Assembly: GCA_023379025.1 (NCBI GenBank) | Contig: JAMCTH010000009.1 | Location: forward strand, 5,092 to 69,091 | Length of the DNA stretch: 64,000 bases | From: Patescibacteria group bacterium | GTDB taxonomy: Bacteria > Patescibacteriota > Microgenomatia > UBA10105 > UBA927 | Reading direction: 5' to 3' | Part shown: piece by piece, positions 25,054 through 31,055 of the stretch | How positions within the stretch are numbered: the first letter of the stretch is position 1 | How the letters are laid out: each line of letters begins with the position of its first letter | Made by a program: the position numbers and the translations under genes | Notes under the pieces: model-generated | The model's input: only the letters and a program-made list of their open reading frames with translations | What the model was told of the DNA's origin: nothing | The model's database searches: none

Positions 25054-25749
25054 ATGACAATTTCCGTCGTCATTCCGGCCTACAATGAGGAGGCGTTACT
25101 CCCCAAAACCCTCACATCCTTGAGACATCTCATACGCAAGCCCGACGAAATCATTGTCATAGACGGAGGTTCGACAGATGGTACGAAAGCCATTGCCCGG
25201 CGGTCGGGCGCGTCGGTATACACCATCCAACATCGCGGCATAGGCTATGCCAGACAACAGGGCATCGAACATGCAAAGGGGGATGTTATCGCGTTCACGG
25301 ATGCCGATACGCTCGTCCCCGACGATTGGCTCACGAAGATAGAACAGACGCTCTCCCGGCCAAGTGTATCCTGCGTCTTCGGTACATTCCGCGTTCCGGA
25401 CGGTTGGCTGCCGTACCGCATATATATCAATCGGCTCCAACCCATACTCAACCAATTCTATTTCTGGATGGGCATCCCCATGGCACCCGGCCAGAACATC
25501 GCCTTTTGGAAAAAAAAGGCGCTCGCAGTCGGAGGCTTTCCGACTGACTTCAAAATCGCCGAAGATATAGAAATGGCGCGACGCCTAAAACGCACGGGAA
25601 AGCTCGTCCTCCGGCAGGACCTCATCGTCGTAAGTAGTGGCCGCCGGGGCAGTGAAGGCCCGGGATTGCTCCTTCGGACGTTTAAAGCATTCTTTCTCTA
25701 CCTGTTCTTTCGGAAAGCCAACACCATAGGATTTCCGGATATCCGCTGA
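25054..25749 (+). CDS. family 2 glycosyltransferase (soluble, DPM/DPG-synthase-like)
   Basis: ISVVIPAYNEE...IIVIDGGSTDGT...FTDADT (DxD). Confidence 0.75.
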   Translation: MTISVVIPAYNEEALLPKTLTSLRHLIRKPDEIIVIDGGSTDGTKAIARRSGASVYTIQHRGIGYARQQGIEHAKGDVIAFTDADTLVPDDWLTKIEQTLSRPSVSCVFGTFRVPDGWLPYRIYINRLQPILNQFYFWMGIPMAPGQNIAFWKKKALAVGGFPTDFKIAEDIEMARRLKRTGKLVLRQDLIVVSSGRRGSEGPGLLLRTFKAFFLYLFFRKANTIGFPDIR

Positions 25750-25781
25750 AGCCCGCGCGTGCTATAATCCCCCTTGCCCGT

Positions 25782-27266
25782 ATGCGCCGTATCTTTTCCA
25801 CATACCCCGACACCACCCGGAGGCTTCTTGAAATCGCCATCCCGGCATCATCCTGGTTTCTCATCACCATGCCGCTTTGGCTTTCATTTTCCCACCCGGC
25901 GCTTGCTGCCTACCTTATCATCACGTTTGACGTCTACTGGTTTTACAAATCGCTGACGTTTGCGTACTATGCGGTCCGGGCGTTCGTAACCATGTCCGCA
26001 TTCAGCAAACTGGACTGGCTTTCCCGAACGCGGGGACTTCGGGGGTTTTCGGAACTCCATCACGTCATTATCATTCCTGAGTACAAAGAGCCGATCCATA
26101 TCCTCGAACGCACCATCGCTAATCTGACAAAACAGGACTTTCCGCTGCGGCGGATCATTATCGTCTTTGCCACCGAAACTAAGGACGGGGACGCTTCAAA
26201 AACAGCGGCGGGCATCCGGAGGAAATACGGCACCCGCTTCGGTCATTTCCTTATCACGCGCCACACCCTCAGACCCGGCGAAATTGCCGGGAAATCCTCA
26301 AATATGGCCTGGGCGGCATCGGAAGCTGCCAAAATGCTCCGGACCTGGCATATTCCCCTGCGCAGCGCAACCGTCACGTCCTGCGATGCGGACGCGCGTA
26401 TCCACCCCAAATACTTTTCCTGTCTCGCCTATCAGTTCCTTACGGATCCGGACAGAATGTATCACTTCTATCAGGGAGCAGTACTGTTTTATTCCAACAT
26501 CTGGCGCATCCCCCTTCCCAACAGATTCATGAATACGCTCAACAGCATCTGGAACCTGTCCCTGCTTTCCCACGGCGGGTACCGGCTCATCAACACCTCA
26601 ACCTATTCCCTTTCCTTTGCGTCGGTCATGAAAGCCGGCGGATGGAGCGTGGATGTCATCCCGGAAGATTATCATCTGTTCTTCAAGATGTTTTTCCGCC
26701 TCGGGCAAAAGGTCCGGACCATCCCGATTTTCCTCCCGGTATTGGTCGATGCGGCGGAAAGCTACGGATTCTTCCGGACCATGGTCAACCAGTATGAGCA
26801 GGTCAAACGGTGGGCGTGGGGAGTATCGGATATCCCCTATGTCATAAAAAATGCACTCGATCATGATGAAATACCGTTGGGAAACCGGCTTATCCGGGTG
26901 GGACTGCTGCTTGAGCATCACGTCTTCTGGCCCGCTAACTGGTTTATCCTGACCGTCGGGAGCATCCTTCCGCCGATCATCAACGTGGATTTCGGCAGAA
27001 CCATCCTCGGACATAATCTGTCGCGGTTGTCGTCCGGGATTCTGACCGTATCCGCGGTTTTTCTCATCGTGATTTTTATGATCGACTGGAGGATAAAACC
27101 GCCGAAACCCAAAGAGTATGCATCATGGAAATTACCGTTTCTGTACCTTCAGTGGCTCACCCTTCCGGTCGTGTCCTTTTTTCTCTCCGCGCTTCCGGGT
27201 CTGGATGCCCATACGCGCCTGCTTCTGGGAAAACGATTGGAATATCGTACGACAGAAAAGATATAA
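25782..27266 (+). CDS. membrane-embedded GT2-like processive glycosyltransferase (QxxRW motif)
   Basis: TM helices at both ends; VIIIPEYKEP..., CDADARIHP, and EQVKRWAWG (QxxRW) as in cellulose/chitin/hyaluronan synthase-type enzymes. Confidence 0.5.
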   Translation: MRRIFSTYPDTTRRLLEIAIPASSWFLITMPLWLSFSHPALAAYLIITFDVYWFYKSLTFAYYAVRAFVTMSAFSKLDWLSRTRGLRGFSELHHVIIIPEYKEPIHILERTIANLTKQDFPLRRIIIVFATETKDGDASKTAAGIRRKYGTRFGHFLITRHTLRPGEIAGKSSNMAWAASEAAKMLRTWHIPLRSATVTSCDADARIHPKYFSCLAYQFLTDPDRMYHFYQGAVLFYSNIWRIPLPNRFMNTLNSIWNLSLLSHGGYRLINTSTYSLSFASVMKAGGWSVDVIPEDYHLFFKMFFRLGQKVRTIPIFLPVLVDAAESYGFFRTMVNQYEQVKRWAWGVSDIPYVIKNALDHDEIPLGNRLIRVGLLLEHHVFWPANWFILTVGSILPPIINVDFGRTILGHNLSRLSSGILTVSAVFLIVIFMIDWRIKPPKPKEYASWKLPFLYLQWLTLPVVSFFLSALPGLDAHTRLLLGKRLEYRTTEKI

Positions 27267-27290
27267 TACGAAAGGAGCGAAACGTACGAA

Positions 27291-29086: not shown

Positions 29087-29088
29087 AC

Positions 29089-30171
29089 ATGGAATTTCTC
29101 CTTCCGGCTGCCGTGGCGGTGCTCGTCAGCTTTTCGCTAAGCCCCCTGGTCATCCGTTTCGCGCGGCGTTTCCGGCTCGTCGACAACCCGAAAACACGCT
29201 ATCATCCGGCGCACACGCATACGGGTATCATCCCGCGCGCGGGCGGGCTGGCAATCGCCCTCGGGGTCATCATTCCCTGCCTGTTCTTTCTGCCCCCCAC
29301 CAAACTGACCGTCGGAATCATTGCCGGCGTCGCCCTCCTTACGCTGGTCGGACTTGCGGATGACCGGCGGGATGTCAATCCCTATAAACGCCTCTTTACC
29401 AACGCACTCGCCGCACTCCTTGCGGTCGGTGCCGGTGCGGGTATTCCGTATGTTACCAATCCTCTCATGGGCGGCGTCCTACGGCTCGATTCCCTGCGCG
29501 TCTCGTTCACGTTCTTCGGTCCGCATTCCGTCCTGCTCTGGGCGGACATCGTTGCATTCCTCTGGATACTCTGGACCATGAACATCGTCGGGTGGTCCGC
29601 CGGGGTAGACGGACAGATGCCGGGGTTTGTGGCAATCGGCGCAATCACACTGGGCATGCTCTCGCTGAGATTCACGCTTGCCGATCCCAGGCAAAGCGCG
29701 GTGACAGTGCTTGCGGCTATTACCGCCGGCGCATTTGTGGGTTTCCTCCCCTGGAACTTCTATCCCCAGAAAATTATGCCCGGCTACGGCGGAAAAACCA
29801 TCGCCGGGTTTTTACTGGCACTTCTTGGCATCCTCTCATACGGCAAGCTCGGAACCGCGCTTCTCGTGCTCGGGGTACCGATGATCGATGCGGCCTATAC
29901 GCTCCTCCGGCGGGTGACCGGGAAAAAATCACTCGTTGCGGCGGACCGCGGACATCTGCATCACCGGCTTTTAGATCTCGGATGGGGAAAACGGCGGATC
30001 GCCTTGTTTTACTGGGGAGTCTCGGCTATACTGGGTGCAGTCGCCCTCCTCGTCAACAGTCAGCAGAAACTTTTTGCATTGCTGGTGGTTGCCGTAGGAG
30101 TCGGAGGGTTTCTGGTATGGGTGAACTTCTTTACGCAATTGTCAGAACCACAAGACCCAGACAGTGGCTGA
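29089..30171 (+). CDS. polyprenyl-phosphate N-acetylhexosamine-1-phosphate transferase (MraY/WecA/TagO family, GT4)
   Basis: LADDRRDVNP, multi-TM, and HLHHRLLDLGW motif characteristic of the WecA/MraY superfamily. Confidence 0.8.
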   Translation: MEFLLPAAVAVLVSFSLSPLVIRFARRFRLVDNPKTRYHPAHTHTGIIPRAGGLAIALGVIIPCLFFLPPTKLTVGIIAGVALLTLVGLADDRRDVNPYKRLFTNALAALLAVGAGAGIPYVTNPLMGGVLRLDSLRVSFTFFGPHSVLLWADIVAFLWILWTMNIVGWSAGVDGQMPGFVAIGAITLGMLSLRFTLADPRQSAVTVLAAITAGAFVGFLPWNFYPQKIMPGYGGKTIAGFLLALLGILSYGKLGTALLVLGVPMIDAAYTLLRRVTGKKSLVAADRGHLHHRLLDLGWGKRRIALFYWGVSAILGAVALLVNSQQKLFALLVVAVGVGGFLVWVNFFTQLSEPQDPDSG

Positions 30172-31055
30172 AAAATCTTGCGCTCTTCACCCCGATCCTG
30201 TTTGCGGGACAACTCCTCGTTCCGACTCCCTTCCGGCAGACGGTATGGGGATTTGTTGCGTACTGCTTCCTTTCCTCATCAAATTATATCCTCAACGATA
30301 TTCTTGACGCGCCCCGTGACCGTAAGCACCCGTTCAAAAAATACCGCCCCATCGCGCGCGGCATCATCCCCGAACCGCTTGCCGTCATAATATCCGCGCT
30401 GTTTGCCATAGGAGGACTTTTCATCAGTCACACGCTCGGACAGTCCTTTTTCCTGCTCTCGATCCTTTTCCTCTTTCTCGAATATGCCTATTCGCTCTTC
30501 CTCAAGCACCTCACGGTCATCGATATCCTCGCGATCACCGCAGCATATTTCATCCGCGTCTATGCCGGGGAAGCGGCAACCGGGTTCCACATTTCCGTCT
30601 GGCTTGCACTGGCAGCACTTTCCCTTGCTCTTTTCCTCGCAATCGGCAAGCGCCGTGCGGAACTGACGCTGATCCAGGGATACCGCGGCGTCGTCCCGCA
30701 GGATACACGCGTCAGCCTCTCCCATTATTCCGAGAAGTTGCTCGATACCTATACCGCTATGTTTGCGAACTCAACATTTATCACGTATGCCTTCTTTACG
30801 TTTTTGGCGCGGCCGGAAAACAGAGGGCTTTTTTTCCAGAATTATACCGACTTCACACCGGATCTTGCCGACCGCAAATGGCTTATGCTGAGTATCCCTT
30901 TTGTCCTTTTCGGCATCATGCGGTACATGCAGCTTATTTACGAGGGGAAAGGGGAATCACCGGAAAAAATTCTGACGTCCGATCTGCCGCTTCTTCTGAC
31001 GGTCATTCTCTGGGTAGGGAGCGTCCTCATTGTTATTTACGGGATAGGAGGATAA
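30117..31055 (+). CDS. UbiA-family prenyltransferase, decaprenyl-phosphate 5-phosphoribosyltransferase-like (DPPR synthase type)
   Basis: RPRQWLKNLALF...SSSNYILNDILDAPRDRKHP fits the NDxxDxxxD motif of the DPPR-synthase subfamily; 8 TM. Start taken at MGELLY, overlapping the upstream gene by 55 nt. Confidence 0.6.
   Translation: MGELLYAIVRTTRPRQWLKNLALFTPILFAGQLLVPTPFRQTVWGFVAYCFLSSSNYILNDILDAPRDRKHPFKKYRPIARGIIPEPLAVIISALFAIGGLFISHTLGQSFFLLSILFLFLEYAYSLFLKHLTVIDILAITAAYFIRVYAGEAATGFHISVWLALAALSLALFLAIGKRRAELTLIQGYRGVVPQDTRVSLSHYSEKLLDTYTAMFANSTFITYAFFTFLARPENRGLFFQNYTDFTPDLADRKWLMLSIPFVLFGIMRYMQLIYEGKGESPEKILTSDLPLLLTVILWVGSVLIVIYGIGG

Follow-up and report, generated by a model that had tools for sequence, protein, structure and literature searches.

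The window examined here is a 64,000-nucleotide (64-kb) stretch of a contig from a Patescibacteria group bacterium, and all coordinates below are positions in it. Between 25054 and 31055 it carries six genes on the + strand, which encode a soluble glycosyltransferase of family GT2, a membrane GT2 (GT2m), a glycosyltransferase of the GT-C fold, a small membrane protein, a WecA/MraY-family transferase (called GT4 below) and an enzyme of the UbiA superfamily. An earlier note on this DNA had named these six products from the letters alone, and had pointed to a QxxRW motif in the membrane GT2 and an NDxxDxxxD motif in the UbiA protein; the open reading frames (ORFs), their Pfam families and the predicted fold of the GT-C agree with all six names, and the two motifs are present as QVKRW (residues 340-344) and NDILDAPRD (residues 60-68), respectively. 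An independent gene caller gave identical gene calls, overlap included, on the identical public contig (Logan SRR10278331). The genes and the features that accompany them are as follows:

25054-25749, + strand: soluble GT2, 231 aa; PF00535, E=5e-32
25782-27266, + strand: membrane GT2 (GT2m), 494 aa; PF13632, E=2.5e-9
27291-28691, + strand: GT-C, 466 aa; no Pfam match, GT-C by predicted fold
28697-29086, + strand: small membrane protein, 129 aa; no Pfam or NCBIfam match
29089-30171, + strand: GT4, MraY/WecA superfamily, 360 aa; PF00953, E=5e-21
30117-30171, + strand: GT4/UbiA overlap, 55 nt, different frames
30117-31055, + strand: UbiA-superfamily enzyme of decaprenyl- or polyprenyl-phosphate 5-phosphoribosyltransferase type (DPPRS/PPPRS), 312 aa; PF01040, E=2e-20, 73.5 bits against a cutoff of 34.2
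31075-31093, + strand: terminator-like hairpin, an 8-bp stem and then a T-rich tail, in the 38-nt gap after the UbiA stop

The genes of the block are separated by gaps of 2-48 nt, except that GT4 and UbiA overlap. Two of the starts are ambiguous: the GT-C may begin at 27291 (466 aa) or at 27342 (449 aa, the NCBI call), and the small protein at 28697 or 28715, which gives a length of about 123-129 aa. The ATG at 30117 is the biologically sensible start of the UbiA gene and has a GGAGG 8 nt 5' of it. A longer ORF at 29592-31055 (487 aa) is open through this start, and its first 175 codons (29592-30116, + strand) are an Arg-rich off-frame read through GT4 and not coding. A promoter-like site lies at 25002-25030, 5' of the first gene of the block; the promoter- and terminator-like sites in the region are no more numerous than shuffled sequence leads one to expect, so they are weak evidence. 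An Rfam scan of 20-36 kb found no RNA families. The nearest relatives of the window UbiA, GT-C and GT2 proteins are 55-77% identical to them and, where named, belong to Candidatus Gottesmanbacteria or to unclassified members of the Patescibacteria group. The block is most likely a single co-expressed envelope-glycosylation cassette of a Gottesmanbacteria genome, that is, of a member of the Microgenomates in the candidate phyla radiation (CPR).

The UbiA-type enzyme

The NCBIfam models for DPPRS gave 200.2 (NF008978), 193.1 (NF008977) and 150 bits (NF008976) with the UbiA protein, and the model for HAD-fused UbiA proteins gave 153 bits. Models for quinone (UbiA, MenA-type, MqnP), heme O (CyoE), chlorophyll (ChlG) and GGGP enzymes gave 48 bits or less, so the DPPRS models are about 150 bits ahead of those for other UbiA subfamilies. 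A search of the PDB with the same protein returned as its sole matches two Mycobacterium tuberculosis Rv3806c entries (8j8j, E=2e-33) over residues 4-303, with 32% identity to Rv3806c; beside the NDILDAPRD motif the window protein has a GKRRAE motif.

The site for 5-phosphoribosyl-1-pyrophosphate (PRPP) in Rv3806c has been described in detail: N73 and D77 are the ligands of Mg2+, R22, K87, R90, K143 and Y138 those of the pyrophosphate and K28, Y70 and Y157 those of the 5-phosphate, and Q135 contacts the ribose O3; ordinary UbiA prenyltransferases do not conserve the residues that bind phosphoribose (PMC10994848). Relatives for comparison came from a scan of one genome per species, which gave 80 loci with a UbiA relative 41-77% identical to that of the window. 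When the window protein, these 80 CPR relatives and Rv3806c (82 sequences) were aligned, R22, K28, Y70, N73, D74, D77, D81, K87, R90, Y138 and K143 (Rv3806c numbering) were invariant. The Y157 position is Y or F across the alignment and is conserved in the window protein. Ten of the 11 PRPP-contact residues of Rv3806c are thus identical in the window UbiA, and nine are invariant in the 80 CPR relatives. The family to which the protein belongs is large, with 1,115 clusters (50% identity) that match it at E<=1e-30.

By all sequence criteria but the NCBI score cutoff (below), the window UbiA is an enzyme of the DPPRS/PPPRS type, with a predicted phosphoribosyltransferase activity, as the earlier note had proposed. 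Model scores and contact residues both place it apart from the quinone and chlorophyll prenyltransferases with which, that note had allowed, it might group instead. If the protein were instead an aromatic prenyltransferase of the ordinary kind, with a quinone, heme O or chlorophyll-type substrate, this would account for the generic Pfam UbiA match and for the automatic JGI name '4-hydroxybenzoate polyprenyltransferase' that some relatives bear, and for nothing else. Against it stand the gap between 200 bits for DPPRS and at most 48 bits for the UbiA, MenA-type, CyoE, ChlG and GGGP models, and the invariance of the very 5-phosphate and pyrophosphate contacts that separate Rv3806c from prenyltransferases; we regard this alternative as effectively refuted and give it a negligible chance. 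Close Gottesmanbacteria relatives of the window protein are already named DPPRS in both NCBI and JGI.

The 55-nt overlap of the wecA-like and ubiA-like genes in different frames, which the earlier note had reported, is real, and it is exactly 55 nt in 59 of the 80 related loci; in the rest it is mostly 1-8 nt or is replaced by a short gap. The GT4 stop codon (TGA or TAA) consists of the last two bases of the UbiA codon for L, V or I at position 18 and the first base of the invariant K19 codon, and K19, which corresponds to K28 of Rv3806c, lies in the motif RPRQW[L/V/I]KN. The overlap is therefore constant because the GT4 stop is built from a conserved motif at the UbiA N-terminus, and its fixed length is a by-product of that motif. 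The overlap itself implies tight co-translation of GT4 and UbiA. The GT4 protein ends in a tail (...FSKPQDPD[S/N]G) that is no more than the UbiA N-terminus read in another frame. A programmed frameshift or fusion over the overlap was considered and set aside, as no evidence for one was seen and the stop codon in the conserved motif explains the fixed length.

The GT-C, its partners and their conservation

A PDB profile search with the GT-C sequence gave no match, and fold comparison alone succeeded. The AlphaFold model of this protein is confident (pLDDT 86.8, pTM 0.87), and its top Foldseek matches are the ArnT entries 5ezm and 5f15 (E=3e-6, TM-score up to 0.59). The further PDB matches are all GT-C enzymes (STT3, PglB, ALG9/ALG12, DPY19, AftA, Pmt1/2 and PimE), with a Foldseek probability of 1.00 against ArnT, STT3, PglB, ALG9/12 and AftA (the last at E=0.015). 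On the strength of this model the 466-aa protein is a predicted GT-C whose closest fold is that of ArnT. Residues D21-E22, within a WRDE sequence just past the first transmembrane (TM) helix, are invariant in 47 homologs; we take this pair to resemble the DE motif of the PMT family. Some relatives carry PF13231 (PMT_2) or the name GT39. The GT-C and UbiA genes are 1.4 kb apart on the same strand, and the confident fold model bears out the earlier statement that a GT-C shares an operon-like block with the UbiA enzyme.

The other members of the block are less specific. GT2m has the motifs DAD (202-204), ED (295-296) and the QVKRW given above. A single-sequence search of the PDB with it gave no match, and its AlphaFold model is of moderate confidence (pLDDT 73.4), being poor over the final 45 residues and in the C-terminal TM region. 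The best fold matches of that model are Chlorella virus hyaluronan synthase (HAS), BcsA, the minimal PcManGT and yeast Chs1, those to HAS and BcsA at E about 2e-10 and with TM-scores of 0.44-0.51 that come from a moderate model with a poor C-terminal TM region. GT2m thus looks, from its modelled fold, like a membrane-integrated, possibly processive synthase of the HAS/BcsA kind. GT4 scores 72 bits with the NCBIfam WecA model TIGR02380 (cutoff 326), 55 with that for archaeal MraY and 45 with that for mraY (cutoff 192), its best PDB match is MraY (5jnq, E=4e-9), and its translation contains DDRRD and HLHH motifs; by sequence it is placed in the MraY/WecA superfamily as a WecA/TagO-like member to which no sugar is assigned. 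The small protein has three TM segments predicted by hydropathy and a conserved loop, LPPxIPLWYSxPWGxxQL. It could be an accessory subunit or a flippase. A GtrA flippase was considered for it and rejected, as it has no similarity to GtrA. The soluble GT2 has no TM segment in a hydropathy scan, matches 6yv7 (PcManGT) best by sequence in the PDB and has weak matches to the polyprenyl-phosphate glycosyltransferases ArnC, DPMS, PpgS and AglJ; it is a generic enzyme of the GT-A fold and a variable, optional accessory member of the block.

How widely are these genes kept together? Neighbours of the UbiA relatives were counted by tblastn with the window proteins in the loci with enough upstream sequence, 46 of them Gottesmanbacteria-like and 22 from more distant CPR lineages (labelled Beckwith- or Woesebacteria, Microgenomates, and Paceibacterota/Parcubacteria), with these results:

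Gottesmanbacteria-like loci: GT2m 46/46, GT-C 46/46, GT4 46/46, soluble GT2 19/46
Distant CPR loci: GT2m 18/22, GT-C 2/22 (tblastn), GT4 22/22, soluble GT2 0/22

GT4 lies directly upstream of UbiA in all 68 scored loci (46 + 22). The order in the Gottesmanbacteria-like loci is MetRS, TatD, (soluble GT2), GT2m, GT-C, (small protein), GT4, UbiA and then a convergent PEGA/SH3 gene. In the distant loci GT2m and GT4 are separated by 2 kb with two genes, one for a protein of about 500 aa (8-10 TM segments) with the sequence EPYWYGDEGIY after its first TM segment, and one for a protein of about 125 aa (3 TM segments) with the loop motif of the window small protein; positional orthologs of the small protein with this motif are present at loci of Beckwith-, Woese- and Parcubacteria type. 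In 61 of 66 loci, again with these three types among them, GT2m and GT4 have between them a multi-TM ORF that carries a DE-type motif. Bridging members of the GT-C family were found by profile at loci L061 (1e-31) and L066 (4e-41), and one of them passes the PMT_2 threshold. The recurrence of the same gene order in dozens of divergent genomes means that the block is not a product of chance: a core of five genes (GT2m, GT-C, small protein, GT4 and UbiA) is a conserved CPR cassette, to which the soluble GT2 is an optional addition. Many contigs with CPR gene content among loci L002-L081 are titled 'uncultured Gammaproteobacteria' or 'Pseudomonadales' (TPA assemblies), and that of L066 'Bathyarchaeia archaeon'. 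Their gene content matches CPR, so these taxonomic labels look unreliable or mis-binned.

Does the GT-C use the product of the UbiA enzyme? In Natronococcus sp. CG52 a protein annotated 'glycosyltransferase family 39 protein' is encoded beside a DPPRS, about 360 nt upstream of the UbiA gene, and the CPR GT-C profile matches it at E=1.3e-37 (hmmsearch); a GT39-annotated protein beside the DPPRS of Haloterrigena sp. KLK7 is matched at E=7.9e-35. An hhalign comparison of CPR GT-C with haloarchaeal GT39 proteins gave a probability of 99.5% (E=3.5e-22) over 349 columns that include the W-x-D-E motif. That the same GT-C subfamily adjoins DPPRS in two very distant lineages argues that the GT-C uses a DPPRS-derived donor. 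No similarity was found between the window GT-C and the DPPRS partner in Lactococcus, the haloarchaeal 'DolP-mannose mannosyltransferase' or the Chondrinema GT39 proteins. Synteny could also exist with no pathway in common, if the GT-C used a polyprenyl-phosphate-hexose made by a GT2 in the manner of GtrB or DPM1 and the UbiA product fed an unrelated process. The weak matches of the soluble GT2 to polyprenyl-phosphate glycosyltransferases fit this, as does the fact that the donor of the GT-C is not readable from its sequence. We nevertheless think it very unlikely, in view of the absence of the soluble GT2 from 27 of the 46 close and all of the distant loci while the GT-C and UbiA always co-occur, the haloarchaeal adjacency just described, and the overlap of the GT4 and UbiA genes. 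A lipid-linked pentose donor that is handed to the GT-C, as the earlier note had it, is still the best reading of a block that holds both enzymes.

Known systems and their additional modules

The earlier note had called a DPPR-synthase-type UbiA enzyme in such a cluster unexpected outside Actinobacteria, and this does not hold: PPPRS and GT-C systems have been published from Pseudomonas and Citrobacter, and homologs occur in many phyla. In the Citrobacter youngae O1/O2 locus ORF15 encodes a PPPRS-PRP, ORF14 a MATE flippase and ORF12 a GT-C of family GT136 (Kelly et al. 2024, PMC11127046). ORF15 was shown biochemically to be a polyprenyl phosphoribofuranose synthase, which by way of the MATE flippase feeds the GT-C, the founding member of GT136 (PMC11127046). 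Pseudomonas pilin arabinosylation is likewise a published PPPRS and GT-C system, and further candidates have been listed from Burkholderia, E. coli, Rhizobium, Xanthomonas, Bacillus and a phage (PMC11127046). Homologs of the window UbiA are present on 100 plasmid or chromid records from many phyla; those annotated as DPPRS lie on replicons of Alphaproteobacteria, Bacteroidota, Lactococcus and haloarchaea, and an unannotated one on a cyanobacterial plasmid. In the literature on CPR or Patescibacteria with DPPRS or UbiA we found no description of the CPR cassette; a single paper names both, and its subject is a different one.

The CPR cassette resembles the Citrobacter system in that an NDxxDxxxD UbiA-type phosphoribosyltransferase is clustered with a GT-C and in that a PRPP-derived, lipid-linked pentofuranose would be used outside the membrane. 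Unlike it, the cassette lacks an epimerase, a flippase of the MATE or GtrA kind and a HAD phosphatase, whether fused or next door. It is also tied to a synthase-like GT2, a WecA-like transferase and a small 3-TM protein, and occupies a housekeeping, deeply conserved position and not a variable O-antigen locus; the closest family signals of the window GT-C are PMT_2 and GT39-type annotation. The mycobacterial system, the decaprenyl-phospho-arabinose pathway with the arabinogalactan cluster, comprises the UbiA protein Rv3806c, the PAP2 protein Rv3807c, DprE1/E2, Rv3789, the GT-Cs AftA, AftB and Emb, the GT2 GlfT2, WecA and Lcp1. The cassette shares with it the 32% identity to Rv3806c with the PRPP site kept and, as predicted, the set of polyprenyl-phosphate phosphotransferase initiator, putative GT2 polymerase, GT-C and lipid-linked pentose donor, and an LCP ligase gene lies in the window. 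It differs from it in its CPR host, in having one small GT-C and not several large ones, in a GT2 that looks like a membrane synthase of the HAS/BcsA type and is not GlfT2-like, and in having neither DprE1/E2 nor PAP2 nearby, so that arabinose is unsupported. The D-arabinofuranosylation of pilin in Pseudomonas aeruginosa PA7/Pa5196 is similar in that a non-actinobacterial DPPRS homolog feeds a GT-C (TfpW), and different in its DprE1/E2 homologs and pilin target, neither of which was found for the CPR cassette. The haloarchaeal clusters are the nearest in their GT-C, since the GT39-annotated proteins of Haloterrigena sp. KLK7 and Natronococcus sp. CG52 are full-length homologs of that of the window, and their DPPRS are 31-33% identical to the window UbiA (tblastn). 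These clusters, which are known from genes alone, have in addition a second GT-C, an epimerase and a PHP phosphoesterase, and they differ from the CPR loci in having no synthase-like GT2, small protein or WecA-like gene. On the megaplasmids of Haloterrigena (L083), Halostagnicola (L085) and Natronococcus (L089) the DPPRS has as companions one or two GT-Cs, an NAD-dependent epimerase/oxidoreductase, a PHP phosphoesterase and a TM protein that resembles lysyl-PG synthase; this shared cluster has the look of an archaeal system for pentofuranose glycosylation in which the phosphatase is of the PHP type.

The annotated DPPRS clusters elsewhere from which comparator proteins could be drawn are arranged as follows:

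Lactococcus cremoris pF27D: hypothetical protein of 462 aa, DPPRS, HAD-IB phosphatase, GtrA, then LCP one gene further
Marivivens: EamA, DPPRS, PAP2
Chondrinema and a Flammeovirgaceae plasmid: DPPRS, FAD oxidoreductase, SDR (the last two a DprE1/E2-like pair); flanking GT39 genes in Chondrinema alone
Haloterrigena, Halostagnicola and Natronococcus: GT-C genes, NAD-dependent epimerase/oxidoreductase, DPPRS, PHP phosphoesterase

The 'glycosyltransferase family 4 protein' upstream of the Marivivens DPPRS was considered as a parallel to GT4 and rejected, as it is not a homolog of the window GT4. HAD, GtrA, PAP2, EamA, PHP, NAD-epimerase and DprE1- and DprE2-like proteins from such clusters were used as tblastn queries against the window and the flanks of the 80 loci, up to 10 kb on each side (most loci have the full flank). 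The DprE1-like query (from Chondrinema) and the NAD-epimerase query had no match in the window or the 80 loci, and the DprE2-like query matched two generic, non-adjacent SDR genes in the 80 loci and none in the window. A Pfam scan of the window, from which a few short ORFs were left out, found no FAD_binding_4, SDR, PAP2, HAD, PHP, GtrA, SMR, MATE or PRPP synthase.

These results bear on which sugar is carried. Of the arabinose or ribose donor that the earlier note had proposed, the arabinose half is left unsupported, as no DprE1-like gene and no adjacent DprE2-like gene was found in the window or within 10 kb in the 80 loci. With no epimerase nearby, the donor is more likely ribofuranose than arabinofuranose. 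A route of the actinobacterial kind, in which DprE1 and DprE2 encoded elsewhere would give polyprenyl-phosphate-arabinofuranose and the GT-C would be an arabinofuranosyltransferase, could draw on the homology of the UbiA enzyme to Rv3806c, the presence of AftA among the structural matches of the GT-C and the Bacteroidota plasmids on which DPPRS travels with DprE1/2-like genes outside Actinobacteria. The DprE1- and DprE2-like queries and the window Pfam scans (for FAD_binding_4 and SDR) speak against it, however, and elsewhere epimerases that are in use adjoin DPPRS, so we consider this route improbable.

The proposed pathway and its setting

We think it somewhat more probable than otherwise that the products of the cassette build a lipid-linked pentofuranose from PRPP and put it to use, and the steps could be as follows. 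At the cytoplasmic face the UbiA enzyme, to judge from its homology and conserved active site, would move 5-phosphoribose from PRPP to polyprenyl phosphate to give polyprenyl-phosphate-ribofuranose-5-phosphate. Removal of the 5-phosphate and flipping would be the work of other proteins, with the small 3-TM protein as a candidate helper. There would be no epimerisation, and the donor would most likely stay polyprenyl-phosphate-ribofuranose. At the outer face the GT-C, ArnT-like in its modelled fold and tied to this donor by co-occurrence, would pass the pentofuranose to an acceptor. The most probable acceptor would be a glycan made by the HAS/cellulose-synthase-like GT2, or one on a WecA-type polyprenyl-diphosphate-N-acetylhexosamine primer; such a glycan would be a minimal secondary cell-wall polymer or lipoglycan, and a Ser/Thr-rich surface protein is the alternative. 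The polymer could then, speculatively, be joined to peptidoglycan by the LCP enzyme encoded at 9244-10413.

Several observations weigh against this pathway. By tblastn no HAD, PAP2 or PHP phosphatase and no GtrA- or EamA-type flippase was found in the window or in the flanks of the 80 loci, and phosphatase or flippase genes directly adjoin DPPRS in the Lactococcus, Marivivens and haloarchaeal clusters. The UbiA protein lies 7 bits under the NCBI equivalog cutoff (200.2 against 207; 193.1 against 234 for the second model), and it is because its best DPPRS score misses this cutoff that NCBI calls the window protein 'UbiA prenyltransferase family protein' while relatives 73-75% identical carry the name DPPRS. 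The ribose-contact residue Q135 is E in the window UbiA, and Q in 60 of the 82 aligned sequences. The GT-C could instead use a polyprenyl-phosphate-hexose, as discussed above, and the GT-C-like protein of the distant loci is marginally similar to the window group (hhalign 24%, E=8e-4, 268 colinear columns). The neighbourhood of the CPR cassette thus has no recognised phosphatase, flippase or epimerase module; such modules may lie elsewhere in the genome, or unrelated proteins may do their work.

The genes around the cassette make its setting an envelope region, as shown by the MurJ, LCP, FemAB and penicillin-binding protein genes in the window. Neighbours and envelope genes with a possible bearing on the pathway are as follows:

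1120-2772: MurJ, the only MOP-family gene in the window, about 22 kb from the cassette
9244-10413: LCP (LytR-CpsA-Psr) ligase
31094-31978, - strand: membrane-anchored PEGA + SH3_3 protein with an S/T/P/G-rich linker; PF08308, E=6.6e-21, and PF08239, E=5.6e-13

The PEGA/SH3 gene is convergent with UbiA and within 2.5 kb of it in 48 of the 48 Gottesmanbacteria-like loci that have enough downstream sequence and in 10 of 22 distant CPR loci; a role for its product as acceptor or wall-binding partner is speculative. Modification of protein by the GT-C, as a PMT/TfpW-like O-glycosyltransferase that puts pentofuranose on Ser/Thr-rich surface proteins or pilins while the GT2 synthase and the WecA-like enzyme serve a separate polymer, is to us an unlikely alternative. 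It would agree with the PMT_2 matches and GT39 names in the family, the invariant D-E pair after the first TM helix, the convergence of the PEGA/SH3 neighbour with its S/T/P/G-rich linker in 48/48 loci, the T/P-rich surface proteins and pilus genes in the window, and the precedent of TfpW in pilin D-arabinofuranose glycosylation. On the other hand, no particular acceptor is indicated, of the distant CPR loci with the cassette about half have lost the PEGA neighbour, and the best structural match of the GT-C is the lipid-modifying ArnT and not a PMT.

Other genes in the window deserve mention. A TatD-family metal-dependent hydrolase gene (24199-25005, + strand) ends 48 nt 5' of the block and is kept in 42 of 46 close and 17 of 22 distant loci. 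Adjacency of metG and tatD is common in bacteria, and the TatD gene here is probably part of such a pair. It is also the sole hydrolase that consistently adjoins a cassette with no recognisable phosphatase, and to see the missing phosphatase in it would be speculation. Envelope genes at 13159-15077, 38486-39910 and 46046-50777 encode a tandem FemAB-family pair, a VanW/PG_binding_4 protein and tandem class A penicillin-binding proteins. At 8590-9093 (+ strand) lies a gene for a protein of 167 aa with an N-terminal TM segment, long Thr/Pro repeats (PTPTPNPTATPVPTATPTP...) and a hydrophobic C-terminal tail after 'PVSGTG', which resembles a sorting-signal surface protein, and at 6161-8584 (+ strand) one for an 807-aa, Pro-rich, single-TM protein with no Pfam match; both products could be substrates of O-glycosylation. 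Two tandem GH130 paralogs (beta-1,4-mannooligosaccharide phosphorylase family), each with an unassigned N-terminal extension of about 300 aa, are encoded at 58603-62369 (+ strand). At 62421-63650 (- strand) there is a fragmented second GT-C-like gene, whose N-terminal piece ('MNARLRTQIILGCIILAGLAVRFFNLAGMPVGLHGDEVSIGYNAYSLL...') ends in a stop and is followed in another frame by a 229-aa multi-TM ORF; it may be a pseudogene or an assembly frameshift.

Taken further, the PRPP-derived pathway would mean that the five-gene block encodes a core envelope pathway which the CPR groups Microgenomates and Parcubacteria have inherited vertically. Its product would be a wall polymer or lipoglycan, decorated with ribofuranose and not described before, that is comparable in minimal form to arabinogalactan or teichoic acid, and its helpers for dephosphorylation and flipping would be unrelated to the known HAD, PAP2, PHP, GtrA and MATE components. 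We put this forward tentatively, as a possibility that is more doubtful than not.

The chemistry and logic of such a pathway are already known, and a DPPRS in bacteria other than Actinobacteria need not surprise any more; the novelty lies in the composition of the cassette and its conserved housekeeping context in CPR. The envelope chemistry of these bacteria, few of which have been cultured, is almost unknown. A gene order that is kept from Gottesmanbacteria to Parcubacteria-type genomes beside housekeeping genes probably serves a basic surface component, which may matter for host attachment, phage recognition and envelope integrity. What one would look for, going by the cassette, is a polymer or protein that bears a pentofuranose derived from PRPP, probably ribofuranose, and the enzymes can be assayed with the methods published for Citrobacter. 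Pentofuranose glycosylation would then gain a variant with no recognised phosphatase, flippase or epimerase modules, for which alternative solutions would have to exist.

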